DNA of 64,000 bases from Patescibacteria group bacterium (GTDB lineage: Bacteria > Patescibacteriota > Microgenomatia > PFEM01 > JBHPGO01): positions 1,656 through 65,655 of the forward strand of contig JBHPGO010000001.1 of the NCBI GenBank assembly GCA_042570465.1. The letters run 5' to 3'. Of the stretch, positions 1 through 42,146 are shown piece after piece (position 1 is the first letter of the stretch; every line of letters begins with the position of its first letter). The notes beneath the pieces were generated by a model, which had not been told where the DNA came from, made no database searches, and saw only the letters and a program-made list of their open reading frames with translations. The translations under genes were made by a program, and so were the position numbers.

Positions 1-67
1 TATCTTTCAACCACTCCTTCTTTTATTCAAATGCCCTTTTTACGAAGTGGCAAATTTAAAATTGAAA

Positions 68-150
68 TTACGCTCAAACTCTAATCTCTCATGAGCTTTT
101 ATGAGGCTAAGATGGGTTCTAACTTCATTGAATCTCTGACACCAATTTTT
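68..150. repeat. R1 intergenic repeat family, copy A (core tatgaggctaa[ag]at[ga]gg[tc]tctaacttc)
   Basis: This sequence matches copies at 928, 2930, 11222, 12630 and 13055, compared by eye. Confidence 0.7.
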
Positions 151-277
151 TAGCCTCAGAAAATAGATCAAAATGCAGTAACCCAAAACGGGATTAGAAC
201 CTCAACGGTCTTCAGAGAAAACCAAGTTTAAATTTCTTCGATTGCTTTTTAGAATCGTTCTTGGCTAAAATAAAGCC

Positions 278-922
278 ATGGTAAAGTCAAAGCCATGGAA
301 TTGGAAGATCAGCTCAGCTCCTTGGTGGAAAGAACCAGCTCCAGAAATTTACCCGTTGCTTAAAAGATGGCAAAAAAAGAAATTTCAAAGACTTCTTGAT
401 TTAGGTTGTGGAATTGGTAGGCATGCCGTGTTATTTGCCCAAGGTGGCTTCAAGGTTGATGCTTGTGATCTTTCACAAGACGGCATCAATAAAGTTAACG
501 AACTAGCTAAACAGAATAAGCTGAATATTAGTACAAAAGTTACCGATATGCTTTCTCTCCCTTATGAAGATAATTTGTTTGACTGCTTGGTAGCTTTTAA
601 TGTTATTTACCATGCTGACGATAAGGGGGTTGTAAAGACAATTAGCGAAATGAAAAGGGTTTTGAAGAAGAAGGGTGAAGCCTTCGTCACTTTTAATTCA
701 AAAAATAGTACTTCTTTTAAAGCAGAAAGCAACAAGCGGTTATCTGAAAACACGGTCATTAAAACCGAAGGGAATGAGGCTGGTATTCCTCACTACTACG
801 CCGATAAGGCTGATGTTGAAAAGCTAGTCAAAGATTTTAAAACTATTGAATTTTCCTATAAGGAAGAATATTATCCTGACTACGTTGGTGCCCACTATCA
901 TGTTCTATTAACAAAAGTGTAG
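278..922 (+). CDS. class I SAM-dependent methyltransferase
   Basis: Motif LDLGCGIGRHAVLFAQGGFKVDACDLS matches Rossmann-fold methyltransferase motif I; the ORF is 214 aa. Confidence 0.6.
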   Translation: MVKSKPWNWKISSAPWWKEPAPEIYPLLKRWQKKKFQRLLDLGCGIGRHAVLFAQGGFKVDACDLSQDGINKVNELAKQNKLNISTKVTDMLSLPYEDNLFDCLVAFNVIYHADDKGVVKTISEMKRVLKKKGEAFVTFNSKNSTSFKAESNKRLSENTVIKTEGNEAGIPHYYADKADVEKLVKDFKTIEFSYKEEYYPDYVGAHYHVLLTKV

Positions 923-927
923 TTATA

Positions 928-1005
928 GTTACGCTCAAGCTCCAGTCTCTCAGCAGCTTTTATGAGGCTAAAATAGGTTCTAACTTCATTGAGTCTAGGA
1001 CCCAG
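928..1005. repeat. R1 repeat copy B
   Basis: ttacgctcaagctccagtctctcagcagcttttatgaggctaaaataggttctaacttcattgagtc aligns to copy A. Confidence 0.7.
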
Positions 1006-1015
1006 AGAAAAAAAA

Positions 1016-1044
1016 GACTACCCCTTGTGGGTAGCCTTTTTTTC
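1016..1044 (+). terminator. rho-independent terminator after the methyltransferase gene
   Basis: Hairpin ctaccc-cttgt-gggtag is followed by cctttttttc. Confidence 0.55.
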
Positions 1045-1221
1045 TGGATGAAGCAGGATTTGAACCCCAATTCCACCCAAGGTTCAATTTACCAAAAACT
1101 TCCTAGTAAACGATTTCAAACTATCGAATTAAATAACGAGGTGTGGACCCTCTCAAATCCCTGCCTGCCGGCAGGCAGGTCCTGGGGTGGAGAAAGGTAT
1201 CTTAAGTGTCAGTTGTAAGCC

Positions 1222-2244
1222 TTGGTAGACTTAAGTATGATAAAAGAGATGAATGGAGTTAAAAACGTCATCAAAACAGTCCTTCTGGTTAGTCTTCTAG
1301 CTACAGTTTTTTCACTTGGGATTTGGATTTTACCAATCCAATCAGTTCAGGCTCAAAGTATTGACGAGGTTTTACTGGTTTTACAAAACTGGGGAACTAA
1401 TGGGCCTGATGGCGATTTCTATCAAGATGGCAAAGTAAATGAAATGGACTTTGGTTTGGTAATGATAGATTGGGGAATGGAACCCTCACCCTCACCCTCA
1501 CCCACCACAGGGCCAACAGTGGTTATCCACGCTCCGCACTACGATTGGTTCAAAAACAAGTTAAAGGCCGGTGACCAGGTGATTTCTGGTGTTAATCGAC
1601 AAAGTGAAGGGTCGCCGCCTAGTAGCAGTCTGTTCAATCAACGCTTGGATCTTCTTAATGCGATTGACGAGAATGAAATTGGTGTGATTAAAAGTTTTAT
1701 GTTTTCCTCTTACCATGATTGTGAAACTTATATTGACCAAATTCCCGATGATGTGACGATTATTTCCTATAATAATGAAGGTTCCATGACACCCTCAGAT
1801 GAACGAGGGGCAGGAGTTTTTAATGCGGTGCATCAATTTGCCAATTGCGTCCATGGGGCTGGTAAAATGTTTACATTTATTCCGGTCAGGAGTGTGTGGA
1901 CTAGTTGGAGCAATGATGAACTAAATCTTATCTTAACCGATGTTGACTCGATTGATTATCAAGGCCAAAACGAAATCAGTCAAGGATCTCAAAACTTCAT
2001 TAATATAGTCACCTCTGTTCATGACAAACTTAAGGCGGTTAATCCCAATTTTGAGATGTATGTCCAAGTTTGGATAAGTCGAGATGATAATCACCAGGAA
2101 GATATTGTTGCAGGCTTTAACGCGGTTCAAGATCTAATTGATTCCGCTTGGATTGTCGGCGCTCAACCAATGTATGATTCCCCTCCAACCTCATCAACTA
2201 TTAGCCAAACTGATTACATCCTCGACCGTCTCAATTGGCGATAA
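1222..2244 (+). CDS. secreted protein with N-terminal dockerin-like repeat
   Basis: A signal/TM segment LLVSLLATVFSLGIWIL is followed by VLLVLQNWG..DGDFYQDGKVNEMDFGLVMIDWG, which resembles the dockerin Ca-binding loop plus helix. The rest of the protein is unassigned. Confidence 0.45.
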   Translation: MVDLSMIKEMNGVKNVIKTVLLVSLLATVFSLGIWILPIQSVQAQSIDEVLLVLQNWGTNGPDGDFYQDGKVNEMDFGLVMIDWGMEPSPSPSPTTGPTVVIHAPHYDWFKNKLKAGDQVISGVNRQSEGSPPSSSLFNQRLDLLNAIDENEIGVIKSFMFSSYHDCETYIDQIPDDVTIISYNNEGSMTPSDERGAGVFNAVHQFANCVHGAGKMFTFIPVRSVWTSWSNDELNLILTDVDSIDYQGQNEISQGSQNFINIVTSVHDKLKAVNPNFEMYVQVWISRDDNHQEDIVAGFNAVQDLIDSAWIVGAQPMYDSPPTSSTISQTDYILDRLNWR

Positions 2245-2341
2245 ACTTTCCATTGATAACAACATGCTTAAAGGAAAGTCTCAAAAAGCCCTGTTAGTCT
2301 CCACTTTACATCAGCCTATAATATTGCTATAATACTTATTC

Positions 2342-2854
2342 ATGTTAACCAAAGAAAAAGAAACAAATCTAAAAAGTTGTTTTCCTGTTTCGGAAAAGGC
2401 TGTGAAATTGGCCAAAGCAGAAATAAGATCTAATCCTAGGCAACAATTAGAGGCTGAATGGGAAAATATAACTCGGCAAAATACGAGACTTGGGGAATTC
2501 TTAAAATTAAGCCATGATGCTATTAAGCAATCTGGCTACGAAAATAAATATACCGAGGGTGCTTTATGGGTCTATAAGACTATTAGAATTCAGGGAGAGC
2601 TAAGTGGAAGTCTGTCTCCAGTAGTTAGCCAGGAAGTAATAGCCGCATATTCTAGGGAAATAATTGATCAATGCGATGGTACTGGAAAAGAACTCGTAGA
2701 TTTATTTACTGAACTTAAATCAGAAATGGAAGAAAATGAACCCGCCCTTGGAAGGTTAATAAAAGAAGTAACCGCATATGAACCCTATCCAGAATATTAC
2801 TTCGGAGGAGCCTCTGATGTATATTGGCTTCTTGAGAGAGCTTCAGTAAATTAG
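2342..2854 (+). CDS. hypothetical protein
   Basis: A 170-aa ORF in an AT-rich background with no recognizable motif. An R1 repeat follows it. Confidence 0.35.
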   Translation: MLTKEKETNLKSCFPVSEKAVKLAKAEIRSNPRQQLEAEWENITRQNTRLGEFLKLSHDAIKQSGYENKYTEGALWVYKTIRIQGELSGSLSPVVSQEVIAAYSREIIDQCDGTGKELVDLFTELKSEMEENEPALGRLIKEVTAYEPYPEYYFGGASDVYWLLERASVN

Positions 2855-2929
2855 TTCGTATAAAATATCGGATTAATCTTCTTAGACTTAAAGTTGGCAA
2901 TATTAAAGTTGAGGATTAACTCAATATTT

Positions 2930-3025
2930 AGTCTTTCTTGAATTTTTATGAGGCTAAAATGGGTTCTAATTTCATTGAGTCCTCGACGAGATTATATTAA
3001 TTTTTCGTGGTTGAGTCCTCGACCC
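2930..3025. repeat. R1 repeat copy C (with ccacga..tcgtgg hairpin module)
   Basis: tatgaggctaaaatgggttctaatttcattgagtcctcgacgagattatattaatttttcgtggttgagtcc. Confidence 0.7.
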
Positions 3026-3039
3026 CCGAAGCAATAAAT

Positions 3040-3160
3040 TTTTGCCAGGTGCCAAGCTAATACACCTTCCAGGTGGACGGTACAGGTGGACGGTACAGGT
3101 GGACGGCACGACTCGGTCGTTCCGAGGCGGACCTAGGGCACCTGGAAGGTGTACGTTGGA
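3040..3160. repeat. GC-rich repeat cluster: 13-bp tandem (ggtggacggtaca x3) plus 16-mer cacctggaaggtgtac in inverted and direct copies
   Basis: The sequence shows tacaccttccaggtg at about 3061, ggtggacggtaca x3 at about 3071–3110, and cacctggaaggtgtacg at 3139. It embeds the GC motif gactcggtcgttccgaggcggacc. Confidence 0.6.
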
Positions 3161-3199
3161 AGGTGTACATTCTGGTAACTTAGGGGTAGGTGTGTCAAT

Positions 3200-3640
3200 C
3201 TAACAGCCGAACCATTCTTTTCTTATCTCTTCTTCCGTTTGATCGGGGGTAAACCCTCTCCTGATTTGATCTCTATGAGATAGAATATCATTCCTATATC
3301 CAACTTTAAGTAACATTAAAGTGTCATCTAGCGACAAGGCGATTTCTGCAGCAGAACCAAGGGGTCCGGACCATTCGTCTGGTTCCTTTGCTGCGTTCAA
3401 TAATCTATTTTGGGTCAATATTTGAGATTCTCTAACTCTTAATGTAGGCCTATGATTTATATCAACTATTTTTTCCATACGATTTAGCATTATATCATTT
3501 ACCATAAATTGAGGTGTTGGCAGGGGGTTTAAGAGATTTCTCAACGTTTTATCTGAACTGACTAGCAACCGTTGTAGACACCTGGAAGGTGTACGCCCTA
3601 AGCCAACAGTCAAAACATGCCAGGTGGACGGCATGTCCAC
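3200..3640 (-). CDS. hypothetical protein (N-terminus probably shorter; the first ~20 codons lie in the repeat)
   Basis: A 146-aa ORF is bounded by direct copies of cacctggaaggtgtacg at 3139 and 3583. Confidence 0.3.
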   Translation of the reverse strand: MDMPSTWHVLTVGLGRTPSRCLQRLLVSSDKTLRNLLNPLPTPQFMVNDIMLNRMEKIVDINHRPTLRVRESQILTQNRLLNAAKEPDEWSGPLGSAAEIALSLDDTLMLLKVGYRNDILSHRDQIRRGFTPDQTEEEIRKEWFGC

Positions 3641-3645
3641 GAAAA
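3583..3645. repeat. second copy of cacctggaaggtgtacg plus the ccaggtggacggca motif
   Basis: Direct repeat of 3139–3155; ccaggtggacgg also occurs at 3069. Confidence 0.55.
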
Positions 3646-3669
3646 TAGCTGTTGACTTCGTCGTAAAAA

Positions 3670-4803
3670 ATGATTACTCTGACAAAAACAGCGTTATTTC
3701 GCAATTCTTCAATAATGAAAAAAGATTTTAAATATCTACTTTTACTTTTGTTAATCTTCTTGTCCTCTTTGGCTGCCTTAGTAATTCCTAAAAAAAATAA
3801 ATTAAAAAAAAATTATTTAAACACCCCCGCAAACACCAAATCTAAAATGACCGACTCTAGCATTAATCAACAAGTTCAGGAAGAAACTGTTCTCGCTGCC
3901 AAAGATGCTCCGGAAAAAAGAACTGAAAATGATCAACAAATTAAAGTGGCCAATATCCGGTTTGGGGTAGTGGTCAAAGACTACTCAAATAACACTGGCC
4001 AGATTAGCGGACTGGAAAACACTTTAGAAAAAATAGTTTCCACAGTTGGCATCTACAAACAATTTGGCTTGCCGACAAACCAGTATCTAGTCGAAACCGA
4101 TCTGGCATATATTAAAAACGCCGGCAAAATCTTACTACTTGCTTGGGAACCATGGAACCCGAATGAGGGCACCAACCAAAGCATTGACTACCTTAAAGAA
4201 ATTGCTGAAGGAAAACACGATGACTACATCACTACTTTTGCCCGTCAAGTAAAAAATTACTCAAGCCCAGTCTTGTTAAGGTTCGCCCACGAGATGAACG
4301 GTAACTGGTATCCTTGGGGAACTAGGCCTTCAGAATATGTTTCAGCATACCGCCGGATTGTTGAAGTTTTTCACAGTCAAGGAACTGACAACGTTAAGTT
4401 TGTCTGGAGCATTAACCATGAATCTGTTCCCTACGAGCCGATCAGTCAATGCCAGAAGTATTTCCCCGGAGAAGCCTATGTTGATATTATTGGTATTGAT
4501 GGCTTTAATTTCGGAACATCAAGAAACAATTCAACTTGGAAAAGTTTTGACAATATTTTTTCACCGGCCTACTCGTTTGTCTCAACTGCTTATCCGGAGA
4601 AACCTATAATAATCACCGAAGTTGGCTCTACGGAGTTTGGCGGCAATAAAAATAAATGGATAGATGAGATGTTTGCTAGTTTAGCCAATATGCCCAAAAT
4701 CCAAGAAATTATCTGGTTCAACTTATTAAAAGAAACTGATTGGAGAATCGATTCTTCGACCACCAGCACCGAAGCCTTCCAACGCAACTTATCAACCCTA
4801 TAG
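3670..4803 (+). CDS. membrane-anchored/secreted glycoside hydrolase, GH26-like (clan GH-A)
   Basis: The ORF has an N-terminal hydrophobic segment. The motif RFAHEMNGNWYPWG matches the GH26 acid/base signature, and IIITEVGSTEFGG is a candidate nucleophile motif. Confidence 0.55.
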   Translation: MITLTKTALFRNSSIMKKDFKYLLLLLLIFLSSLAALVIPKKNKLKKNYLNTPANTKSKMTDSSINQQVQEETVLAAKDAPEKRTENDQQIKVANIRFGVVVKDYSNNTGQISGLENTLEKIVSTVGIYKQFGLPTNQYLVETDLAYIKNAGKILLLAWEPWNPNEGTNQSIDYLKEIAEGKHDDYITTFARQVKNYSSPVLLRFAHEMNGNWYPWGTRPSEYVSAYRRIVEVFHSQGTDNVKFVWSINHESVPYEPISQCQKYFPGEAYVDIIGIDGFNFGTSRNNSTWKSFDNIFSPAYSFVSTAYPEKPIIITEVGSTEFGGNKNKWIDEMFASLANMPKIQEIIWFNLLKETDWRIDSSTTSTEAFQRNLSTL

Positions 4804-4859
4804 TTTGACTTCTCATCGTTAGTCTTGTATAATATCCCATAGTATTACTAAGAACGCGT

Positions 4860-7562
4860 ATGGACTTTTTTCGAGTCCATATTTTTTTATCACCAAATAT
4901 GTTGCAAGACTTTTACCTGAAGGCGTCCAAAATCAAAAAGCTTCTGATCAAGCTGGGGATTGTCTATGGCCTAATCCTGACCACCGGCTATGCCCTGTTT
5001 CGGGCTTATTACATCAATTTTAATCCCTACCTGGTTATTCCCGCCATTCTTTTATATATGGCCGAGCTTCACACCATTATTCTTTTATACGGTTTTTTAT
5101 ATTCTCTTTGGCCAAGAAAATTCAAAACTTATTCTAAAATTAATCGCAACCGGAACCTGCAAGTTAACTTATTTATAACAACAGTCGGTGAACCGATAGA
5201 AATTGTCAGTCAAACCATTGAGCACGCTAAAAAAGCGGCCGATCACTACCGAAAAATTGTCAAACCTAAAAAAGCCCCCCGGGTGATTGTTCTTAACGAC
5301 GGCTTTGGTGCTAAGAAAGAAAACTGGTGGCAGGTCCGTGACTTTTGCCAAAAGGTGGGTGTGCTTCACCTTGCCCGAAAAACTAACGAAGGCTTTAAGG
5401 CCGGCAATATCAACAACGGTTTAAAAAAATTTCCAAGTAAAGATCCCCATAACACTATCGACTGCTATTTTGACGCTGACTTTTGTGCCAAAAAAGAATT
5501 TTTGATCGAGATCTTAAAACCCCTGGTTGACAACAAGGTTGACTTTGTCCAAAGCCCTCAGCGCTATAAAAACCTGACTACTTGGGTAGCCAAAGGGGCC
5601 GGAGCTCATCAAATTTTCTTTTTTGACTATGTTTGTCCGGCCAAAGCCTATGACAACGCTCTCTTTTTATGCGGCACTAATTATGCCATCAGAAGACAGG
5701 CGCTTTTGGATGCTGGCGGAGTTGACAATCGGTTTGTCACCGAGGATTACGCGACCTCGATCAAACTTCACTTGCTGGGCAAAAAAGGAGTTTTTGTTTC
5801 TAAGGTGCTGGCTTTGGGCATGGCCCCGATGAACCTTAAGGAATACTTTAACCAGCAAACCCGATGGTGCAAAGGCTGTCTTGATGCCAACGGAAAATAT
5901 CTCAAAGAATTGCTCTTTGGTCCGTTAAATTTCAGGCAAAAACTTCATTACTTTTTATCAACCGCTTATTACTTTATCGGGGTCAGGGATTTGATCTTGG
6001 TGCTGGCTCCCATCCCATATCTTTTTTTCGGCATTTCTCTGATCAGAGCCAATACCACCATGTACCTGGCTTTTGTCTACCTGCCATTAATGATCTTCAA
6101 TTTCAGCTTGTTTTTCCTGACTTTTCGCAGCCCCGTTAAAAGCTTGGTGCTGGATATTGTCACCTTTCCGGTCTTTGCCTTGGCTTTTGTATCCAGTGTT
6201 ATCAAAAAAAATCTTCCCTTTACCGTCACTATCAAAAAATATGAAAAAGAAAATCCTTTCCGGGTTTACAAAATTCAGCTGGCAGTAGCCACGCTCCTCT
6301 GCGCGGGAATTGCTTACAGCTTCCTGTTTAATAGAAACCACAACCCCTATGGGAAGTTTATTAATCACTTTTGGGCCACTTATAGCGCCACTTTTTTGTT
6401 GCTTGGTTTTTTCCTGGTCATCAGGGAAAACTATGATTTCAGTCGGCTTGAAAATCATTACTCAAACTTACTGGGAACCTTAAAAAATGCTCTCGGTTTC
6501 ACTAAAAGATTTGCCCTAAGGCCAGCGGTTGCTTTCGTCGCCGTCATTATCGCCTTTATCTTCCTTGGCTATAGCGTCAAAACCGGTGTTTTGGCTTACG
6601 ATGACATCCGAACAACTTTTAACAAAATCATCAAAAGAGAAGAGCTTTTAGTTCCCGACAATGGGGCTTACTATGGTTACTTTTTACCGGAGCTGAATTC
6701 GCACCCGGAAAGTCCGGTCATCTCGACCGTTGAGGGTGATCACCCAAGCCTGGTGATGTACTATCAAGATTTTAGCCCTGATTCGCAGTTTAACCTCAAG
6801 TTTATGAACATGCTTTATGAAAAAGGGTCAATCCCGATCGTTACCTGGGAGCCTTGGATCCGTGGCTCAGATCAGGAAAAGATTATTAACCAAGAAGGCC
6901 AAGCAGCCGAGGAAATATTATCGGGGAAATATAATGAGCATATCAGGCAATGGGCCAGAGGTGCTAAAAAATTTGGTAAACCTTTCTTTTTAAGGTTTGC
7001 CCACGAGATGAACGGCAACTGGTATGCCTGGGGTTCTTTTGATGAAAATAGCGCCAGTCAATACAAAAAAATGTGGAAGCATGTTTTTACCATCTTTAAA
7101 GAAGAGAAAGTTGACAACGCGATTTGGGTCTGGTCCCCCAACAACACCAACCAATACGGATTAGCCGACTCGATGCTTGATTTTTACCCTGGTTCTGAGT
7201 ACGTTGACTGGACCGGTTTTTCTGCTTTCAACTGGGGAAATTCTTATTCTGACAATCGTTGGATGGATTTTAAAACCAGTTGCTGGGAGGCTTACTCTAC
7301 CTTGGCCCAGTTGAACAAGCCAATCATGGTGGCCGAAACTTCTTCGGTTAGTATCGGTGGCGACAAAACCGAGTGGTTTAGGCAAACCCTCGAACAAGAC
7401 ATTCCCTCAATGCCTTTGATAAGGGGGGTAGTTTTATTCAATGAAGACTATCAGAATGCCGACTTTATCCTTGATAAAGGGATGGACGCCAACGAAATGG
7501 TCAAACATCATTTGCTCAACAATGGCTACTATCTAACCAATCCAATTCTCCAGTATCGGTAA
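4860..7562 (+). CDS. fusion protein: processive GT2 (cellulose-synthase-like) membrane glycosyltransferase plus C-terminal GH26-like domain
   Basis: DADF, TEDYAT and QQTRWCKG (QxxRW) motifs sit between TM helices. The C-terminal RFAHEMNGNWYAWG and IMVAETSSVSIGG are paralogous to the upstream GH26-like ORF. The true start may be an internal Met. Confidence 0.6.
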   Translation: MDFFRVHIFLSPNMLQDFYLKASKIKKLLIKLGIVYGLILTTGYALFRAYYINFNPYLVIPAILLYMAELHTIILLYGFLYSLWPRKFKTYSKINRNRNLQVNLFITTVGEPIEIVSQTIEHAKKAADHYRKIVKPKKAPRVIVLNDGFGAKKENWWQVRDFCQKVGVLHLARKTNEGFKAGNINNGLKKFPSKDPHNTIDCYFDADFCAKKEFLIEILKPLVDNKVDFVQSPQRYKNLTTWVAKGAGAHQIFFFDYVCPAKAYDNALFLCGTNYAIRRQALLDAGGVDNRFVTEDYATSIKLHLLGKKGVFVSKVLALGMAPMNLKEYFNQQTRWCKGCLDANGKYLKELLFGPLNFRQKLHYFLSTAYYFIGVRDLILVLAPIPYLFFGISLIRANTTMYLAFVYLPLMIFNFSLFFLTFRSPVKSLVLDIVTFPVFALAFVSSVIKKNLPFTVTIKKYEKENPFRVYKIQLAVATLLCAGIAYSFLFNRNHNPYGKFINHFWATYSATFLLLGFFLVIRENYDFSRLENHYSNLLGTLKNALGFTKRFALRPAVAFVAVIIAFIFLGYSVKTGVLAYDDIRTTFNKIIKREELLVPDNGAYYGYFLPELNSHPESPVISTVEGDHPSLVMYYQDFSPDSQFNLKFMNMLYEKGSIPIVTWEPWIRGSDQEKIINQEGQAAEEILSGKYNEHIRQWARGAKKFGKPFFLRFAHEMNGNWYAWGSFDENSASQYKKMWKHVFTIFKEEKVDNAIWVWSPNNTNQYGLADSMLDFYPGSEYVDWTGFSAFNWGNSYSDNRWMDFKTSCWEAYSTLAQLNKPIMVAETSSVSIGGDKTEWFRQTLEQDIPSMPLIRGVVLFNEDYQNADFILDKGMDANEMVKHHLLNNGYYLTNPILQYR

Positions 7563-7952
7563 AATACTCCCAGCCAACGATCCTGCTTCGGTACTATTTT
7601 TTCCTTATGGTTTTAGGGGACTTCTTTACTGAAAGACTTACCCACCTTCGATGGCCCAATTATTACAATAGCATGATATAATAACTTTGTTATCTAGAGG
7701 AGATCTATGACAGAAGTGTATGGGCCAAAAACAGAAACAACAGAAGAATTATCGGGGAAGATTGACATGGGAATTATTCTTTCTAGGATTGGAATTGCCC
7801 AGGTTGCTTTAAGCCTTGGTTTTCCACTTGGTTCTTTGCACTCACCAGAGGATACAGGAAAACCACCTGCTGTAAATGATCCGCCTGAAACACCCAAATA
7901 GCTTTTAACTATTTTCATTTTAAATCCTTTCATGGCCCCTTTTTTTGCAATA

Positions 7953-7967
7953 GGCTGGTATAATATG
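7953..7967 (+). promoter_or_regulatory. extended -10 promoter ggctggtataat, with AGGAGG RBS 5 nt before the ATG at 7993
   Basis: The sequence shows aataggctggtataat; the same 16-mer occurs at 10864. Confidence 0.45.
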
Positions 7968-7992
7968 CATAGTCGTTTGGAAAGGAGGAAAT

Positions 7993-8289
7993 ATGATAGA
8001 AAAAACTGTTGGGAATACAATTGAAGAGCCAGAAAGAGAAGAAACTAAACGTGAGAAAGAATTAAGGGAAGCACTCGGCTCTTTGGTGGCAGTAGTAAGA
8101 TTTAACGAGTTTTGTGGACAAGTGGAAACTAGACTTGAAGGATTGACGATTATGTCAGCCGATGTGAATCCTGCAAAACAAGAAGTTGGTAAGCCGCCTT
8201 CTAATGAAGCAGTCGAAATATTAATTAATGATGAAATCGATGAAATTGTTAGGAAATTCGGTAGACTACCTGCTCCAGACCAAGAATAA
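7993..8289 (+). CDS. small hypothetical protein (98 aa), acidic
   Basis: ORF with a canonical RBS and the conserved promoter; the antisense Ser-rich ORF 7920..8306 is judged spurious. Confidence 0.4.
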   Translation: MIEKTVGNTIEEPEREETKREKELREALGSLVAVVRFNEFCGQVETRLEGLTIMSADVNPAKQEVGKPPSNEAVEILINDEIDEIVRKFGRLPAPDQE

Positions 8290-8395
8290 TTCTTAACTGT
8301 CTTCATTTAAAATCTTCCTCAGTTGATTCATCAAAGTTTTATAAAGGTAACCCTGATACTTTGGGTGTTAACTGAAATTTCCTTGTTCGTCAACC

Positions 8396-8468
8396 CGTCT
8401 CGACTCGGCTCGCCTCGCGCCCGCCTTGTCTTCGACAAGTCGAGACAGGTCGAAGCGGGTCATTCCGA
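8396..8468. repeat. GC-rich palindromic insert (H2 family)
   Basis: The sequence cgtctcgactcggctcgcctcgcgcccgcc...gtcgagacag...ccgaggcggaccc shares cgactcgg..tccgaggcggacc with 3106 and 42362. Confidence 0.5.
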
Positions 8469-8689
8469 GGCGGACCCGTATCAAACCATGTTCGTGAAGT
8501 GCTTTCAATTACTATATTACTCCAGTGTATTTTGTCAACGACTTCTGAGTTATGGTCAAAAGAACAACCCTAAACCCTCCAACCCCTCGGCATAAGTGCC
8601 CCAGTACCAGTTCCGATCTAAAATCGGAACGATACGGGGTGAACTTCCTTATGATTTGGGGTTGCTTAATTTTTACCCCAGTGTCGAGG

Positions 8690-8747
8690 AGAAGTGGGGT
8701 CGTGTAATTCTTATTCTTGGGGTGAAGCACCCCCAATTGAAATTTTC
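8690..8747. repeat. R2 repeat (gaagtggggtcgtgtaattct..ttggggtgaagcacccccaattgaaa) copy 1
   Basis: Near-identical copy at 9093 and a partial copy at 9477. Confidence 0.65.
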
Positions 8748-8756
8748 AAAATATTC

Positions 8757-9005
8757 CTAAACATTATTTACTTGTGCTTGATTAGGATTACGGATAGCTT
8801 CTTTGAATCTAGCTTGAAATTTAGTTAATAGTTCTTGAGCAAGTTCTTTGCCATCGAATACTGGACTTTTTTCTTCAAAAATTGTCGAGGGGTCTCCAGA
8901 ACGTGGCGCTTCCATACCAAAATCTTCAAATATTTTTCTTATTTGTGCACGAACTCTTAAATCTTCTGGTGTAACTGGTTTTATATTTTCTAATTCAACT
9001 AGCAA
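8757..9005 (-). CDS. small hypothetical protein (82 aa)
   Basis: An ORF with a GGAGG RBS; an R2 element lies in its 5' region. Confidence 0.3.
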   Translation of the reverse strand: MLVELENIKPVTPEDLRVRAQIRKIFEDFGMEAPRSGDPSTIFEEKSPVFDGKELAQELLTKFQARFKEAIRNPNQAQVNNV

Positions 9006-9092
9006 TTTATTATCACCTCCTTTCTTTACCCCTCCGTAGTCCCGATTTAATATCGCGGACGAAGGAGGGCTGCCCCTTCCTCGCAGTTCTAT

Positions 9093-9150
9093 GCGAAGTG
9101 GGGTCGTGTAATTCTGTCCTTGGGGTGAAGCACCCCCAATGGAAAATTCG
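9093..9150. repeat. R2 repeat copy 2
   Basis: gcgaagtggggtcgtgtaattctgtccttggggtgaagcacccccaatggaaaattcg. Confidence 0.65.
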
Positions 9151-9166
9151 ATTAGTTTAACGCAAA

Positions 9167-9448
9167 CTATCTTTCAGTTTGATCAAGTTCACCTAGTCCT
9201 TCTTCTTGGCTCCTATCAATTTCTAAATCATAGGTCGCCTCCTCCTCGAGAGTCAGTCGTCTACCCATAACCGTTGTTTTATAAACACCATCTGGTCCAA
9301 CATCAATGCCAACCGAAACAACTTTCCTTCCAGGTTTAACCTCAGGTAGTTGCGGATCCCCTGGAGTTTCTCCTTCTGGTAGTTTTTCGGCTTCTTCCTC
9401 GGGAATATAGGTAATAATCGGTCTTGGCTCATAATGTTCAACAGGCAT
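9167..9448 (-). CDS. small hypothetical protein (93 aa)
   Basis: An ORF with an AGGAGG RBS, and a partial R2 copy upstream at 9477. Confidence 0.3.
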   Translation of the reverse strand: MPVEHYEPRPIITYIPEEEAEKLPEGETPGDPQLPEVKPGRKVVSVGIDVGPDGVYKTTVMGRRLTLEEEATYDLEIDRSQEEGLGELDQTER

Positions 9449-9476
9449 TATTTAATCCTCCTTTCTTGTTAATTAT

Positions 9477-9503
9477 TGGGGCCTACCCCCGATTGAAATT
9501 GTT
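9477..9503. repeat. R2 partial copy 3 (ggggcctacccccgattgaaattg)
   Basis: Shares the acccccaattgaaatt core. Confidence 0.5.
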
Positions 9504-9593
9504 AATCTATCCTCCCAAACTCACCTTTCGGCTTTTGGACGAAAATCTAGTTGGCACATCACCCGCCAATATGAAGAAAAAACAGATGTTTCT

Positions 9594-10199
9594 TCAGAGG
9601 CTCTCGTATGCCTCCACCTGATTTTCATATTCGTATTTAACCATGCCGTAGTCGTTTTCCCACTTTTGCATTGCACTTTTCATAATGTCTAAATGGGTAT
9701 TTTGTTTCGCCAGCCAGTCAAAGGATTCCATTTGTTCATCAATCTCGTATCTGACCATGCTGTAATCATCTTCCCATTTATTTTCGGCATCCGCCTTAAC
9801 AATGTCTTTTGCTTCTTCTCTGGATGGTAAAAGACTAGCTCCTGTTTGCTGTATTTTTATTGTAGGCGTGGGTGCTTCAGTTGTTTTTTCTTCTATCTTC
9901 TCCTCTGGTTTGACGGTGGCGGTTACTTCTACTTCTTTTACGGGTGTCGGTGTTAACTTCGAAGAATCACTTTTCTTGCTATCATCATTGCCGAAGACAC
10001 CAATTATTAAAAACAGCCCGAGAAAAAGACCAACCAGAATCAGGCATCCCTTAGCTTTTTTTGTACCCTCTCTCTTTTTCTCTTCCTTCTTAATGTCTTT
10101 CCTGACCTTGACGCGATGTTTTTCTTCTGCCTCAATTTTATTCTTTTTTTCTTCAGACAAGGTTTCTTTATCTTCTTTAATCATTTTTTCACCCACCAT
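9594..10199 (-). CDS. membrane-anchored Lys/Glu-rich protein with two tandem ~25-aa C-terminal repeats
   Basis: TM segment LILVGLFLGLFLIIGVF; the repeats KWEDDYSMVRYEIDEQ and KWENDYGMVKYEYENQ. Confidence 0.4.
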   Translation of the reverse strand: MVGEKMIKEDKETLSEEKKNKIEAEEKHRVKVRKDIKKEEKKREGTKKAKGCLILVGLFLGLFLIIGVFGNDDSKKSDSSKLTPTPVKEVEVTATVKPEEKIEEKTTEAPTPTIKIQQTGASLLPSREEAKDIVKADAENKWEDDYSMVRYEIDEQMESFDWLAKQNTHLDIMKSAMQKWENDYGMVKYEYENQVEAYESL

Positions 10200-10392
10200 C
10201 CCCTTAAAAACAAATAACCCGCCAACTAGCGGGTTGATAAAAATGAGTTTTTCTCGATATTTGGGAAGATTTTAAGTCTGTCCAACATTATGTACACGGT
10301 AGCAAACGCTAAGAAGACGTGTCAAGTGACGAATCCCATATACAATGTTATGAGATGTTGTTAATTATTAAAGGAGAATTGCCTGCTTTAAT

Positions 10393-10638
10393 CTAAGGCG
10401 TCTCTGTTAAAGGTGGAAAAACTAGCAATTCTCTCACTTCTTTTTCGTACCTATGGGGATCCAAGCCTTCTCCAGAAACAATATATTCCCTCATTTCTTC
10501 ATCAAATAAAGGCTCTCCTGCTCTAGCTCTAGCAATTTGTTCTTCATTAGCCATCCGCATAACTGGCAAAATATATTTTAAATCCATCACAGACCTATGT
10601 GTTCTTGCTTGGGATTCGGCACTAACTTCTACTCTCAC
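10393..10638 (-). CDS. small hypothetical protein (81 aa)
   Basis: An ORF with a GGAGGTGATAAC RBS region. Confidence 0.3.
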   Translation of the reverse strand: MRVEVSAESQARTHRSVMDLKYILPVMRMANEEQIARARAGEPLFDEEMREYIVSGEGLDPHRYEKEVRELLVFPPLTETP

Positions 10639-10742
10639 GTTATCACCTCCTAAAAAATTAACAATTTCATCTTACTGGTGTTTATACGAACTTCTACTTA
10701 TCCTTCAATATATCTTATCATGAGTAGACAAATTGGCTTCCC

Positions 10743-10777
10743 CACACCCGATGTGACACAGGTACCGCACATCGGGA
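10743..10777. repeat. REP-like palindrome (cacacccgatgtg-N13-cacatcggga)
   Basis: The same family occurs at 34193, 34251, 53753 and 54508. Confidence 0.6.
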
Positions 10778-10863
10778 CTTGCCTGCCTAACCTATGACAA
10801 TTTGACAGACCAAATCAAGTACTAAAACAAGCCTATCTTAATTAAGACTCCCCTATTTTTTGA

Positions 10864-10880
10864 AATAGGCTGGTATAATG
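10864..10880 (+). promoter_or_regulatory. extended -10 promoter aataggctggtataat inside inverted repeats (ttaagact..agtcttaa; cctatttttt/gaaatagg)
   Basis: Identical 16-mer to the one at 7952; it lies upstream of the ATG at 10914. Confidence 0.45.
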
Positions 10881-10913
10881 AAAATTAAGTCTTAAAGTTA
10901 GAAAGGGCAAGAG

Positions 10914-11198
10914 ATGTCTGAATTTGAGCCAAGAACACTAGAAGAATATTTGCGAATAAATGATATTCAATTGGGAGATGGAGTTAGAAAAATGCTGGAG
11001 GCAGACACGCTGATAGTAAATGGCCTTGCTGAAGGTTCAAGAAGAACTACAAAAGAAGGAGTGGTAAGTAGGGAAAACCTGCTAGACACTTTAATGCAAA
11101 GAAGAATGGCAAAGCTACCGATCGGAGAGCTTCTTGGTGGAGGGCTGGCTAGCGGATGGAAGTGTCGTTATAGTGGATCAGATAGGGAAATGGAATAA
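10914..11198 (+). CDS. small hypothetical protein (94 aa)
   Basis: An ORF with the shared promoter; an R1 repeat follows it. Confidence 0.4.
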   Translation: MSEFEPRTLEEYLRINDIQLGDGVRKMLEADTLIVNGLAEGSRRTTKEGVVSRENLLDTLMQRRMAKLPIGELLGGGLASGWKCRYSGSDREME

Positions 11199-11221
11199 TA
11201 TCCTTCAAGTTTAGATAATTT

Positions 11222-11335
11222 AAACTACGCTCAAATCCAAAATCTCAGTGGCTTTTTTGAGGCTAAAATAGGCTCTAACTACGCCTGCCACGAGATTATA
11301 TTAATTTTTCGTGGTTGAGTCCTTGACCCCGAGGT
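11222..11335. repeat. R1 repeat copy D
   Basis: acgctcaaatcc...tttgaggctaaaataggctctaactacgcctgccacgagattatattaatttttcgtggttgagtcc. Confidence 0.7.
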
Positions 11336-11347
11336 TCAAAAAAGCCC

Positions 11348-12106
11348 TTAACTAGCTCTCTCGAGTTTTTCCAATAGTTTTCTGTATCTACTTTGGTTTT
11401 CAACAACTTGGGAACAAGAAATCCATACCTCTCTTGTTTTGTCCCATTTATTTTTAAATGTCTTTAGTCCTTTTTTGTCCTCTTTTTTTGAAAGAATAAA
11501 TCCTCCTGTTGCTCCATAAAGGCGTTTGTGCATTGAGGGGTTCTTGGTGGTAAAACCCAAAGATTGGACAATCTTCATTCCGCCAAGGTGTGATAGGTCA
11601 GTCAAGGCGACAACATCACTGGGAAAATCTCCATTCTCAATGTCATCCCCCAATTCAATCAGCCCCCCCAAGAAATCTAGCAACATTGATCTGGAAAATT
11701 GAAATATGTTTCCTTGGTCAAGTTGATCAAGGTTCCTAACTAAGTCTATTTTCCCTATTCTGTCACCAGGTTTAATTCGTACATTGCCATCTAGTGTTTT
11801 TCGACGACCACGGTGACGAATAAAAGTAATTTTTCCATGATTTCCCATTTGATAATTTTCAGAAAGAGCGCCTTCAGCAATTTCAGACCAAATTTTGAAG
11901 TTCCAACCCTTCAATCCAAGTAGCAAGGCATCAGAAAATATTTCCGAACCTGTTTTTCCTTTCGCTATTCCAGCCGAAACTGCCGTAATTGACCCAGTCT
12001 TACTAAGTACCTTAGCTGAAGGCTTATACGCCAATTTTTTAAGGGTATTTCTCTGGCTTTGAGAATTACCTTCAGGGCTCAATGGAATTTCATCAGCTTC
12101 CGCCAT
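11348..12106 (-). CDS. hypothetical protein (252 aa)
   Basis: Long ORF with no recognized motif, bracketed by R1 copies D and E. Confidence 0.4.
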   Translation of the reverse strand: MAEADEIPLSPEGNSQSQRNTLKKLAYKPSAKVLSKTGSITAVSAGIAKGKTGSEIFSDALLLGLKGWNFKIWSEIAEGALSENYQMGNHGKITFIRHRGRRKTLDGNVRIKPGDRIGKIDLVRNLDQLDQGNIFQFSRSMLLDFLGGLIELGDDIENGDFPSDVVALTDLSHLGGMKIVQSLGFTTKNPSMHKRLYGATGGFILSKKEDKKGLKTFKNKWDKTREVWISCSQVVENQSRYRKLLEKLERAS

Positions 12107-12310
12107 ATTTAAACACTATCATGAAATCTCCAGGATTTCCAGGTAATTCAAATAACTCTCCATCTCCGATCTTTCTTTTGCACTGATAACGCCATAATGG
12201 ATTCGAACTTCCACCCTTCTCCGCCAGCTGGCGGATTCGGAATGGCACGGCGTTCTTTAGACCCAAAATTATCATTGACTGAAAATTGATCAATTGATAT
12301 CATTTAATTA

Positions 12311-12604
12311 ATGCTTACCAAAACCGACCTTTCCCAAATCAGAAAAGTTATCAGAGAAGAAATTGAAAACGAAGCCGACAGTTTGAAAAAAGATCTTCAG
12401 GGTGAGATGAAATTGGTTCGGATGGAGATTCAAAGAGATGTTCGGAAGTTGAGTGATGAGGTAAAGGACCTAAATATTAGGATCAGAAAAATTGAAAAAG
12501 ATATCAAAACCGTTGTAAATTTCTTCGACAAGGAATCTTTGAAGACAGGCCAGCGAATCAGCCAGATTGAAGATCATCTCAAAATCTCTTCTCCTGCATT
12601 GTAG
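12311..12604 (+). CDS. small coiled-coil protein (97 aa)
   Basis: Heptad-like charged sequence; R1 copy E follows it. Confidence 0.35.
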   Translation: MLTKTDLSQIRKVIREEIENEADSLKKDLQGEMKLVRMEIQRDVRKLSDEVKDLNIRIRKIEKDIKTVVNFFDKESLKTGQRISQIEDHLKISSPAL

Positions 12605-12629
12605 GGTTAAGTTTGAACTTTGGACTTCC

Positions 12630-12705
12630 ATAAGGATAAAATAGGCTCTAGCTTCGCCTGCCACGAGATTATATTAATTTTTCGTGGTTGAGTCTGGAAC
12701 CCCAA
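12630..12705. repeat. R1 repeat copy E
   Basis: aaaataggctctagcttcgcctgccacgagattatattaatttttcgtggttgagtc. Confidence 0.7.
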
Positions 12706-12775
12706 ATACCGAGGTGTGCTACCTGAGACGCCTCCAGGGTATATTTTATTTGCAAATGCTTGATAAAATATAATC

Positions 12776-13030
12776 ATGGCACGCAGTCCAGAATACCAAC
12801 TTTTTTTAGATATCGTTTCAGAGCGAAAACCAGATACTTTATCCAAAATCATAGAATATCCGGCAACTGAGCAAGAAGTGGGTTGGTGGAAACAACATCA
12901 GGTCAGGAGGGCCATTCGCAAATGTGGAAATGGATCCGCTACACCAGTTGACTATCACCTCGTGCGCAGAAAAACATCAATAATCCCCTCTCTTGCAACA
13001 AGAAAACGATTAAAACAACGATCATTATAA
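12776..13030 (+). CDS. small hypothetical protein (84 aa)
   Basis: An ORF; R1 copy F follows it. Confidence 0.3.
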   Translation: MARSPEYQLFLDIVSERKPDTLSKIIEYPATEQEVGWWKQHQVRRAIRKCGNGSATPVDYHLVRRKTSIIPSLATRKRLKQRSL

Positions 13031-13054
13031 TAGTTGGAGGATTCCACCTCATCT

Positions 13055-13125
13055 CTCGTAGCCGTAAAATAAGTTCTAACTTCGCCTGCCACGTTTATTT
13101 AATTTACGTGGTTGAGTCTAGGTCC
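13055..13125. repeat. R1 repeat copy F (diverged)
   Basis: gtaaaataagttctaacttcgcctgccacgtttatttaatttacgtggttgagtc. Confidence 0.6.
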
Positions 13126-13422
13126 CATATTAGCATCTTAAGATTTAGTTGATTAATTATATTAATGATGGAATAATCATTATTAATACATGATTAAGAA
13201 GTTCGCATTAATAGTTTCAATATTTCTAGTCTTAAATGGCCTTGTAGTTTTATTTGAATCTTTCAAATGTATGTCAACCCCCGTATGTCAACCCCCGAGG
13301 TTGACATAGGTAGCAACCTCGGGAACAAGCTTCAAGTTTTTGGATAAAACACTCCCAAGTAACAATTGCCGCCTGCTTGATTTTAACATCGCCTTTTACA
13401 GTTAAATAGAAAAGAGTTAGGG

Positions 13423-39640: not shown

Positions 39641-39766
39641 TTGTTCGTAGCTTTCTATTCGTTTCTTAATACGGATTCATCTTGTTTGAAAGTCAAGTGG
39701 AGTTGCAGGTTCAAGTCCCCACAAGCTAGACACAAAAACACCCCTTTCGGGGCGTTTTGGTCTAGC

Positions 39767-39835
39767 TGCGGGGCCAGGACTCGAACCTGGATTAATGCCT
39801 TCAAAGGGCACGGTCCTACCATTAGACGACCCCGC
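39767..39835 (-). tRNA. tRNA-Gln(TTG)
   Basis: Acceptor GCGGGGT/GCCCCGC, anticodon stem GTGCC/GGCAT with loop CTTTGAA, T-arm CCAGG-TTCGAGT-CCTGG; the D-arm is short. Confidence 0.65.
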
Positions 39836-39892
39836 AATAAATAATTCACAATTTACAATTACCAATTTTCATATAGGCACGCTAACGCGTGC

Positions 39893-40035
39893 CTCATTTG
39901 GAGCGAGGGACGGGGGTCGGAGGGTCCGAAACAATTTATTTCCTCGAAACCCCTGAACTTAATCCCCCTATCTCTAACTTAATTTGAAAGGTACTCTCAA
40001 CGCGGGTTCTCGCCCAGTCCCACGCAAAATCTTAC
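39893..40035 (-). repeat. ~143-bp tandem unit containing a tRNA-Gly(GCC) 3'-end copy preceded by GGACCCTCC
   Basis: ggagcgagggacgggggtcggagggtccgaaac... is identical to 40036–40182. Confidence 0.65.
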
Positions 40036-40182
40036 AAATATGGAGCGAGGGACGGGGGTCGGAGGGTCCGAAACAATTTATTTCCTCGAAACCCCTGAAC
40101 TTAATCCCCCTATCTCTAACTTAATTTGAAAGGTACTCTCAACGCGGGTTCTCGCCCAGTCCCACGCAAAATCTTACAAATA
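40036..40182 (-). repeat. second tandem unit (tRNA-Gly(GCC) 3'-end copy)
   Basis: Exact repeat; it abuts the genuine tRNA. Confidence 0.65.
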
Positions 40183-40258
40183 TGGAGCGAGGGACGGGGG
40201 TCGAACCCGCGACCTTCTCGTTGGCAACGAGATGTTCTGCCAGCTGAACTACCCTCGC
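40183..40258 (-). tRNA. tRNA-Gly(GCC), CCA encoded
   Basis: Acceptor GCGAGGG/CCCTCGC, D-arm GTTC-AGCTGGCA-GAAC, anticodon stem TCTCG/CGAGA with loop TTGCCAA, T-arm GCGGG-TTCGACC-CCCGT. Confidence 0.8.
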
Positions 40259-40500
40259 GTATTAGTAATGTTTTGGCTTATTTGTCTAACGTAGGTTCTC
40301 CTCTTAGAACAGATTGATTGATTTTTTCATGTAATTCTCTCGAATCCCGGACAGTTAAGGTTGCTTGCCTTCTTGCCATTTCAGGAGACATTCCTGAGGT
40401 CGTAAATTGATTTGTCAAGTGGTCTCTGAATTTTCGATCTACTCCACAAATAATAATAGATGTTTCCATTTTTAATCCTCCCTTCTTTCAATATTCACTG

Positions 40501-40573
40501 TGCCAGGGAGCAGAATCGAACTGCTATCTCATGTTTTTCAGACACGCGCCGTGACCACCTTGGCTACCCTGGC
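40501..40573 (-). tRNA. tRNA-Phe(GAA)
   Basis: Acceptor GCCAGGG/CCCTGGC, anticodon stem CGTGT/ACATG with loop CTGAAAA, T-arm AGCAG-TTCGATT-CTGCT. Confidence 0.75.
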
Positions 40574-40820: not shown

Positions 40821-40827
40821 AAAATTT

Positions 40828-40895
40828 GTGACCACCCCCGAGGGGGCCCTTTCAGGGTCCTGATAGGACGCCTTCGGCGCTTGGCTACCCTGGCA
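40828..40895 (-). repeat. tRNA-Phe 5' fragment (GCCAGGGTAGCCAAG...GTGGTCAC) split by a ~45-nt GC-rich hairpin insert in the D-loop
   Basis: Compared with 40546–40573; the insert is cgccgaaggcgtcctatcaggaccctgaaagggccccctcgggg. Confidence 0.55.
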
Positions 40896-41829: not shown

Positions 41830-41848
41830 ACATTCCTAAAAATTACTC

Positions 41849-42121: not shown

Positions 42122-42146
42122 ATTTATTGTTTTAATAAGCCTCCAG

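Follow-up and report, generated by a model that had tools for sequence, protein, structure and literature searches.

The first 13.2 kb of the 64-kb window (the whole stretch of DNA that was analysed) contains an array of direct repeats, designated R1, with small genes lying between them. These cargo genes are either orphans or of typical accessory kinds; several of them carry promoter-like sites of their own, and one is inverted relative to the others. The minus-strand translation of every R1 copy yields one peptide family ending in a stop codon, which is referred to below as the tail. The features of the array are as follows:

43–200, minus strand: R1 copy c1, the longest tail gene fragment; peptide ending in NEVRTHLSLIKAHERLEFERNFNFKFATS and the stop (43–45); core at 103–123; homology to relatives runs on to ~195 (GAGGCTAAAAAAT 'EAK' block, TTTTGGGTTAC)
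278–922, plus strand: class I SAM-dependent methyltransferase (MTase), 214 aa; its final 11 nt lie inside the c1/c2 homology
901–1003, minus strand: copy c2, short type without the hairpin; peptide GPRLNEVRTYFSLIKAAERLELERNYNYTFVNRT and stop; sharp boundary past GGACCC (~1001)
1018–1034: bidirectional terminator, after c2
1222–2244, plus strand: 340-aa orphan, secreted-looking
2342–2854, plus strand: 170-aa orphan; promoter-like site at 2305–2333
2854–3028, minus strand: copy c3, hybrid type; peptide GLNEIRTHFSLIKIQERLNIELILNFN, continuing to a stop; 39-nt in-frame insertion, imperfect hairpin at 2984–3010, duplicated TTGAGTCCTCGAC on its flanks
10914–11198, plus strand: 94-aa orphan ORF; promoter-like TTGAAA-N17-TATAAT at 10851–10879
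11202–11332, minus strand: copy c4, hairpin type (CCACGA 11288–11293, TCGTGG 11309–11314); TTGAGTC at 11315–11321; peptide (V)AGVVRAYFSLKKATEILDLSVV and stop, with a TAA stop upstream, within the hairpin loop; boundary past GACCCC at 11330
11348–12106, minus strand: 252-aa orphan, NCBI MFC1726909.1 (ACFL0Y_00080, Patescibacteria group bacterium); no homologue besides this entry among 5.8 billion proteins
12122–12256, minus strand: copy c7, divergent; peptide RVEVRIHYGVISAKERSEMESYLNYLEILEIS and two stops; a different hairpin (CCGCCAGCTGGCGG) at the equivalent position
12311–12604, plus strand: 97-aa coiled-coil orphan; promoter-like site at 12275–12303
12629–12705, minus strand: copy c5, hairpin type (hairpin 12661–12687); tail ends after ~15 codons
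12776–13030, plus strand: 84-aa orphan ORF
12996–13129, minus strand: copy c6, hairpin type (hairpin 13089–13111); diverged tail (beginning GEVRTYFTATRDEVESSNYYND); overlaps the 3' end of the 84-aa ORF

The six R1 copies reported in the initial annotation were found at their places, all in a single (+) orientation, with direct-repeat spans of 51–140 (c1), 912–1001 (c2), 2898–3026 (c3), 11222–11330 (c4), 12630–12703 (c5), and 13055–13126 (c6). The 21-nt core GAGGCTAAAATRGGYTCTAAC gave five matches at ≤3 mismatches in the 64-kb window against 0.02 expected, and the motif CGTGGTTGAGTC gave four against 0.11 expected; all the motif matches fell within the first 13.2 kb. The gene-then-repeat layout also held, as each of the six copies begins 0–45 nt past a plus-strand ORF, which is far beyond chance. 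The pairs are the MTase and c2, the 170-aa ORF and c3, the 94-aa ORF and c4, the 97-aa ORF and c5, and the 84-aa ORF and c6, and an open + frame enters c1 from the window edge.

The repeat had been described as ~80–115 bp long, but profile searches extended its 5' side (c1 43–~200; c2 901–1009; c3 2854–3028; c4 11202–11332; c6 12996–13129). The divergent seventh copy, c7, was recognised with a peptide-profile E value of 3e-16; it has no plus-strand gene before it and lies just upstream of the minus-strand 252-aa ORF. With nhmmer, neither the 8.3 kb separating c3 from c4 nor the remaining window yielded an additional copy. Identity between the copies is 62–90%, and they are of two structural types, with and without a 31–39 nt insert. 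This insert is the ccacga/tcgtgg hairpin, which neither c1 and c2 nor any relative outside the window possesses. The hairpin is present in the four copies for which it had been claimed, but its loop has 15 nt rather than 16, and in c3 it is imperfect because the left arm is CGACGA.

In c2–c6, the similarity is lost within 1–2 nt past GACCC(C), and the sequence beyond is unrelated. The upstream homology of c1 is ~50 nt longer than in these copies, so the boundaries are not all coincident. The R1-bounded units measure 860, 2025, 926, 447, and 423 bp, with one of 8304 bp containing many genes. The single orientation, the position beside the 3' ends of small orphan genes, and the common end nucleotide of five copies support the view that R1 acts as a unit boundary. 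This positional part of the first reading is therefore retained, while its other part, that R1 is an integron attC site, is not.

The attC reading drew on the gene-then-repeat layout, the terminal GTTGAGT matching GTTRRRY, and the short hairpin in four copies. The candidate was rejected, as no copy showed an attC-like bottom-strand fold. Folding of both strands as single-stranded DNA gave only the local 6–7 bp hairpin in c4–c6 and no R''/R' pairing; c1 and c2, which have no hairpin, gave folds no more stable than those of shuffled controls (z = 0.04 to 1.2). RNAalifold found 0 conserved base pairs among ten family members. The proposed boxes TTCTAAC/CTCTAAC and GTTGAGT are complementary at 3/7 positions only (AAC/GTT), no L''/L' and spacer symmetry was seen (8–9 nt against 0 on the opposite side), and a GTTGAGT(-like) box was found in no relative outside the window. 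Moreover, unlike attC sites, R1 is protein-coding (in antisense) over its conserved part. The statement that the window holds no integrase was borne out, since recombinase Pfam domains were absent from the ~50 window ORFs scanned. The search beyond the window gave no integrase or recombinase in the 8–10 kb around five relatives either; no intI was found, and no recombinase or transposase was present in or beside the array, in any unit, or beside any relative. That R1 is nevertheless a true attC family, forming a CALIN-type array without an integrase, is thus extremely improbable.

The terminator, attenuator, and MITE alternatives raised in the initial annotation did not survive either. A 3'-UTR element would agree with the constant location of R1 in intergenic 3' regions, three copies lying between convergent genes. 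Yet the terminator scan does not call R1, the R1 hairpin, with its 15-nt loop, has no T-run after it, and c2 is followed by a separate canonical terminator. Neither the Rfam 15 covariance models nor ARAGORN (tRNA/tmRNA fragments) gave a match to R1, and no conserved structure was found. A MITE is rejected because R1 lacks both terminal inverted repeats and target duplications; besides, all copies are confined to 13 kb. We regard this whole group of explanations as very improbable. The sole transposase-like ORF (Y1_Tnp, 53830–54507) has no R1-like hairpins near it. The TR/VR pair of a diversity-generating retroelement was considered as well and rejected: c4 and c5 do not differ in an A-specific way, and the scanned ORFs contain no RT domain.

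R1 is the antisense image of the last ~26–35 codons of a small gene family, including the stop codon and a few bases past it. Relatives of the tail are carried by eight independent groundwater/CPR contigs; a DNA scan and protein searches yielded the loci L001 (Ca. Daviesbacteria), L002, L003, L006–L009, L011, and L026. The relatives belong to other Microgenomates-type CPR genomes, as a rule with one per locus. They have in common the consensus WGPLANDVRTYFSLCKPQELEIYRQIL followed by the stop and differ by third-position and Arg CGA/AGA/AGG/CGG changes. On seven of the eight relative contigs, the tail frame has a dN/dS of 0.07, whereas the other five frames have 0.29–1.9, indicating that the tail is under strong purifying selection in the relatives. 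A few relatives are intact ORFs of 58–92 aa, with intact small ORFs at L009 and L011, and the complete ORF is weakly predicted to adopt a beta-beta-beta-beta-alpha fold. Over ~30 nt (GCGWACGATGTTAGAACCTATTTT), the synonymous positions are kept even in the loci that came from the protein searches, whereas elsewhere the tail is saturated (dS ~2.3); there may be a nucleotide-level site within this part of the coding region. In several relatives outside the window, the similarity upstream of W-G-P fades gradually with no sharp break, which could simply reflect a fast-evolving N-terminus. The population-level evidence is thin because only ~10 related sequences exist among 1.8–5.8 billion proteins.

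The copies in the window are non-functional relics, as they have no start codons (c2 and c3), often contain in-frame stops (within the hairpin loop in c3–c6), and evolve near-neutrally, the dN/dS of c1–c3 being 0.27–0.73, with no difference from the other frames. A six-frame profile search of the window found no intact tail gene, including at either array end. Copy c6, the most upstream one in the tail gene's own direction, has no 5' part, and the sequence to its right is non-coding.

The leading proposal, to which we give about an even chance, is that modules of accessory genes entered the tail gene serially at a single point, each event adding one copy of its 3' end. The insertion point would lie just 5' of the GGGGTCC (W-G-P) codons, and each insertion would have carried in or left behind one extra 3' end by a site-specific (or short-homology) recombination step. 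The array would then resemble a cassette array or an integration hot-spot, with R1 as the junction sequence, and would not be an integron. What points to such a history is that seven truncated copies stand head-to-tail within 13 kb, each beside different orphan accessory genes, and that these repeats are gene 3' ends in direct orientation with a common 5' breakpoint in c2–c6. The relatives are consistent with it. The sequence upstream of the tail is the end of a NUDIX gene in L003, a truncated His-phosphatase N-terminus in P0003/L007, the end of a transglutaminase-like gene in L006, and the end of an LPxTG protein in L026. In L011, the NUDIX gene is followed by an intact tail gene, while in L006, 6 kb of cargo separates NUDIX from the tail. 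Synteny between L001 and L003 extends over one side, but beside the tail their gene content differs. The order of tail then Q-block in L003 against Q-block then tail in L011 is a circular permutation.

Several observations stand against serial insertion. Neither a recombinase or transposase nor, at the array ends in the window, an intact tail gene accompanies the copies; the c1 boundary differs from the others, several relatives show the gradual upstream fade, and the 8.3-kb unit contains many genes. R1 does not flank the MTase homologues of other genomes; therefore, no cassette is seen moving as a unit.

An unlikely alternative is that R1 is the recombination site of a dedicated, functionally integron-like cassette system. 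Its recombinase, with a gene directly left of the contig start or at another place in the genome, would insert and excise gene and R1 units, and the antisense coding signal would be a by-product of the site's origin. The uniform orientation, the boundary common to five copies, the units of 423–2025 bp with one or two orphan genes each, and the ~30-nt core with suppressed synonymous change all suit such a system. The L003 and L011 permutation is as expected from a circular intermediate, and the analysed sequence opens ~50 nt before c1, so an adjacent platform is possible. This alternative is opposed by the recombinase searches of the window and around the five relatives, the missing conserved secondary structure, the single-copy relatives, the cargo genes' own promoter-like sites, and the MTase homologues without R1; the dN/dS of 0.07 means that the sequence is kept as a protein, not merely as a site.

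Alternatively, the copies could be decayed paralogues of a locally duplicated small gene, with the intervening genes being ordinary neighbours and no insertion having taken place. This would explain why the copies are gene fragments at differing stages of decay, and it accords with the intact family ORFs elsewhere (L009 and L011) and the gradual upstream fade. We consider it rather improbable, as seven strictly direct copies all lack the 5' part, five of them are cut at the identical nucleotide, and no flanking sequence was co-duplicated. In addition, separate origins are favoured by the two structural types and by the 62–90% identity.

Little is understood of the routes by which CPR bacteria, whose genomes are tiny, gain accessory genes. 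The gene-end repeats bounding orphan genes point to a defined hot-spot of gene gain, and the tail peptide or the 21-nt core is a searchable marker that could reveal such hot-spots in other Microgenomates. It is a speculative and rather doubtful extension that CPR/Patescibacteria carry an undescribed gene-cassette system, an analogue of integrons, in which small accessory-gene modules form circles and integrate again at a ~30-bp site within the 3' coding part of a tiny nucleic-acid-binding-like gene. Such a system would use an unknown recombinase or a recombinase-independent mechanism driven by competence and homology, and the permuted tail and Q-block of L003 and L011 would be a trace left by such circles. 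The array also calls for caution in attC hunting, since antisense gene fragments can give a gene-then-repeat layout with a GTTRRRY-like end.

The array shares several features with integrons, including CALIN arrays and sedentary chromosomal integrons, whose attC repeats are near-identical: a repeat of ~100 bp comes after the gene, the orientation is uniform, the ORFs are small and either orphan or accessory, and the repeat stops sharply at its 3' edge. It differs in that R1 consists of antisense coding sequence and has no attC fold, paired R''/R' or L''/L' boxes, or extrahelical-base architecture; IntI, attI, and Pc were not seen with the array, several cargo genes have promoter-like sites of their own, and the R1 relatives are single.

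In the Rhs/CDI 'orphan' CT-immunity arrays of polymorphic toxin loci, a row of displaced modules likewise results from successive replacement or insertion, each module keeping a short conserved coding piece at a fixed breakpoint. However, R1 keeps the conserved C-terminal end instead of an N-proximal motif, and the modules between the copies are unrelated genes on the other strand with no toxin/immunity signature.

Where elements integrate repeatedly into the 3' end of a tRNA, tmRNA, or icd gene, a row of displaced gene ends results, and in the case of phage 21 and e14 at icd, the element carries a surrogate gene end. R1 differs from these systems in that its units have no integrase and may be as small as 423 bp, no intact target gene stands at the array end in the window, and the target would be an ORF that is tiny, rare, and poorly conserved, not a housekeeping gene. 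What they have in common with R1 is direct repeats that are gene 3' fragments in one orientation with a common breakpoint, partly synonymous changes between the copies, and unrelated accessory DNA between them.

The repeat R1, about 100 bases long and found after small accessory genes, is present in seven copies in the window. Six of them (c1–c6), already listed in the initial annotation, were confirmed by direct-repeat detection and by reading the sequence directly, and the family was extended by a divergent copy, c7, which has 62% identity as a repeat and was confirmed at the peptide level.

R1 copies in the window
51-140, plus strand, copy c1
912-1001, plus strand, copy c2
2898-3026, plus strand, copy c3
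11222-11330, plus strand, copy c4
12630-12703, plus strand, copy c5
13055-13126, plus strand, copy c6
12122-12256, divergent copy c7

No further copies were detected by nhmmer anywhere in the window. The 21-nt R1 core was matched five times (0.02 expected by chance) and CGTGGTTGAGTC four times (0.11 expected), all these matches being confined to the first 13.2 kb. The previously described gene-then-repeat layout also holds, as c2–c6 each start 0–45 nt past the stop codon of a plus-strand ORF. These ORFs encode a class I methyltransferase and then orphan products of 170, 94, 97 and 84 aa, and at the window edge an open plus-strand frame extends into c1. R1 comes in two structural types, c1 and c2 without a hairpin and c4–c6 with CCACGA-N15-TCGTGG. 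A hairpin ccacga-N16-tcgtgg had been reported in four copies; its stem is indeed present in c4–c6, but the loop is N15, and the hairpin of c3 is imperfect and flanked by duplicated TTGAGTCCTCGAC. The hairpin represents an insertion of 31–39 nt relative to c1, c2 and all relatives outside the window, and is a lineage-specific trait, not a defining feature of R1.

The minus-strand translation of the R1 copies gave a shared peptide ending in a stop codon (c1, NEVRTHLSLIKAHERLEFERNFNFKFATS; c2, NEVRTYFSLIKAAERLELERNYNYTFVNRT; c3, NEIRTHFSLIKIQERLNIELILNFN with further residues before the stop; c4, VVRAYFSLKKATEILDLSVV; c7, VEVRIHYGVISAKERSEMESYLNYLEILEIS). In this frame, dN/dS averages 0.07 over seven genomes, compared with 0.29–1.93 in the other five frames, indicating that the conserved part of R1 is antisense protein-coding sequence. 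It is the C-terminal ~26–35 codons of a small gene, referred to here as the tail. The ~30-nt stretch GCGWACGATGTTAGAACCTATTTT retains its synonymous sites, also in the loci that came from protein searches, whereas substitutions are saturated over the remainder of the tail, a pattern suggestive of a nucleotide-level site within the coding sequence. Within the window, no in-frame ATG, GTG or TTG is present in c2 and c3, a stop codon lies in the hairpin loop of c3–c6 just upstream of the tail, and the dN/dS among c1–c3 (0.27–0.73) is not distinguishable from that of other frames. The window copies are relics, not working genes. That such relics came about through the decay of local paralogues seems to us quite unlikely.

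When public collections were scanned with the core, one tail copy each turned up in L001, a Candidatus Daviesbacteria MAG, in a second MAG, L002, and in L003, a contig from a metagenome that is the same as L005; protein-level searches added the loci L006–L009, L011 and L026. All relatives encode WGPLANDVRTYFSLCKPQELEIYRQIL followed by a stop, or close variants, and the differences among them fall mostly at third codon positions, including Arg CGA/AGA/AGG/CGG switches. At two loci, L009 (58 aa, with a strong Shine-Dalgarno sequence) and L011 (92 aa), the tail forms the end of a complete ORF that has a start codon. A word-indexed profile search of 5.8 billion proteins with the tail peptide gave four matches, all short. 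Exhaustive searching of 1.84 billion representatives with HMMER yielded 11, nine of them short ORFs of 36–111 aa with unrelated N-termini and two rejected as repeat-protein false positives. A long parent protein for the tail does not exist. Pfam and NCBIfam recognised nothing in the tail peptides, and neither tail relatives nor R1 were found in viral contigs, phages or plasmids.

The AlphaFold model (AF2) of the 61-aa relative P0004, of modest to weak confidence (pLDDT 63), predicts a ββββα topology in which the tail would make up β4 and the helix. The best PDB matches of this model were PUR repeats with non-significant E-values, and we treat the likeness as a lead rather than a finding. Upstream in the small gene, an in-frame TGA in L001 (6566–6611, minus strand) occupies exactly the position of a GGG (Gly) codon in L006 (8594–8650, plus strand), perhaps by chance or perhaps as a vestige of a donor lineage in which UGA encodes Gly.

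The initial annotation had compared R1 with integron attC sites, taking TTCTAAC, apart from its first base, as R'' and GTTGAGT as R', and had called the comparison speculative. When both strands of each copy were folded as ssDNA, only a local stem of 6–7 bp appeared, in c4–c6, and the folds of c1 and c2 were no better than those of shuffled sequence. R'' and R' were paired in no ssDNA fold of the R1 copies. The proposed boxes are complementary only at AAC/GTT and asymmetrically spaced, with 8–9 nt from R'' to the stem and 0 nt from the stem to R'. RNAalifold predicted no conserved base pairs for ten family members, and GTTGAGT is missing from the relatives, where the equivalent segment is TCGCTAGGGGACCC. 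No recombinase domains were detected in the about 50 window ORFs, in line with the initial remark that no integrase is visible there, nor were any found around the tail relatives. Lacking an attC fold and paired boxes and being antisense coding sequence, R1 is most improbable as a true attC; the cassette-like organisation itself is real. The terminator and MITE alternatives are likewise very doubtful, since the terminator scan does not call R1 and R1 has no terminal inverted repeats; a canonical terminator stands separately after c2.

Several other identities were rejected. Neither Rfam (gathering and E-value thresholds) nor ARAGORN matched R1 to a known RNA or a tRNA or tmRNA fragment. A tmRNA-like tag, that is, an ORF without a start codon, was ruled out by the lack of a tRNA-like domain and the varying C-termini, a DGR by the lack of A-specific changes and of an RT, and an IS200/IS605 end by the lack of a conserved 4–5 nt target before the boundary and of a link to a Y1 gene. 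The only transposase-like ORF seen (225 aa, 53830–54507) has an IS200-like Y1 domain with the HUH motif MPNHYHIL; it lies 40 kb from the R1 array, and no R1-like hairpins occur near it. The six-gene tRNA cluster (Gln, Gly, Phe, Val, Leu, Leu) on the minus strand at 39765–45668 is unrelated to R1.

Copies c2–c6 all stop resembling one another at the same position, immediately behind GACCC(C), and each continues into a different sequence. Copy c1 has about 50 nt more upstream homology than the others, and in some relatives the upstream similarity fades gradually.

Sequences joined upstream to the tail outside the window
L003, stop of a NUDIX gene
L007 (protein P0003), codons 1–30 of a histidine phosphatase
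L006, end of a transglutaminase-like gene
L026, LPxTG protein; second breakpoint within the tail, after CKPQE

L011 has the gene order DEAD helicase, NUDIX, intact tail gene. In L006, DEAD helicase and NUDIX come in the same order and are separated from the tail by 6 kb of unrelated genes, and L003 likewise has NUDIX before the tail. The block VDDQFAEEVMIYTILLGNSATK follows the tail in L003 and stands directly upstream of it in L011. The order of the tail and this "Q block" (..DQFAEEV..) is thus reversed between L003 (4680–4854, minus strand) and L011 (1033–1197, plus strand), an arrangement that amounts to a circular permutation. One flank of the tail shows synteny between L001 and L003, and the genes adjoining the tail differ.

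Two further elements border R1 copies. Immediately right of c3 (3045–3175), the 13-nt tandem repeat CAGGTGGACGGTA (x2.8, 3070–3106) is nested in the inverted repeat ACACCTTCCAGGTG...CACCTGGAAGGTGT, and the whole resembles a structured or protein-bound site. Just right of c6 (13269–13325), two tandem copies of GTATGTCAACCCCC precede the perfect 10-bp hairpin CCCGAGGTTG-N10-CAACCTCGGG; within this element, ACCCCCGAGGTT is similar to GACCCCGAGGTT at the right edge of c4.

The cargo between the R1 copies consists of orphans or typical accessory genes; its ORFs had no matches in PHROGs and PADLOC, and for a 252-aa ORF the sole match is its own sequence. One unit of the array measures 8.3 kb. Inside this segment, two ~60-nt direct repeats of a second family (8684–8745 and 9088–9148, 89–93% identical, containing the hairpin TTGGGGTGAAGCACCCCCAA) flank an 82-aa minus-strand ORF (8757–9005), with which they may form another small bounded unit. 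The promoter-like box CCCyTTTTTTTGmAATAGGCTGGTATAAT, repeated at 7936–7964, 10851–10879 and also 7654–7682, precedes small ORFs, the 94-aa cargo gene among them. Two adjacent GH26-domain genes (3670–4803 and 4860–7562, the second a 900-aa GT2+GH26 fusion) have a stretch of 49 nt in common at 90% identity and are likely to be paralogues.

Taken together, the shared boundary of c2–c6, the varied upstream junctions, the rearranged relatives, the constraint on GCGWACGATGTTAGAACCTATTTT and the orphan or accessory cargo lead us to propose, with about even confidence, that accessory modules were inserted serially into the tail gene at a single point, and that every insertion left another tail-gene 3' end. 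Against this stand the failure to find a recombinase, the lack of an intact tail gene at either end of the array, the longer homology of c1, the gradual loss of similarity in some relatives, the size of the 8.3-kb unit, and 14 other loci with methyltransferase homologues (60–70% identity), none flanked by R1. As the contig starts about 50 nt before c1, there is room further left for the platform or recombinase of a dedicated, undescribed cassette system, an alternative that we consider rather unlikely.

Displaced ends of tRNA, tmRNA or icd genes are known to occur in rows, and serial insertion would make the R1 array analogous to them, with successive insertions each leaving one 3' end. R1 would then be a set of direct repeats derived from a gene end at a hot-spot of insertion, significant mainly for its occurrence in a CPR genome and as a searchable marker, and a variant of this known arrangement.
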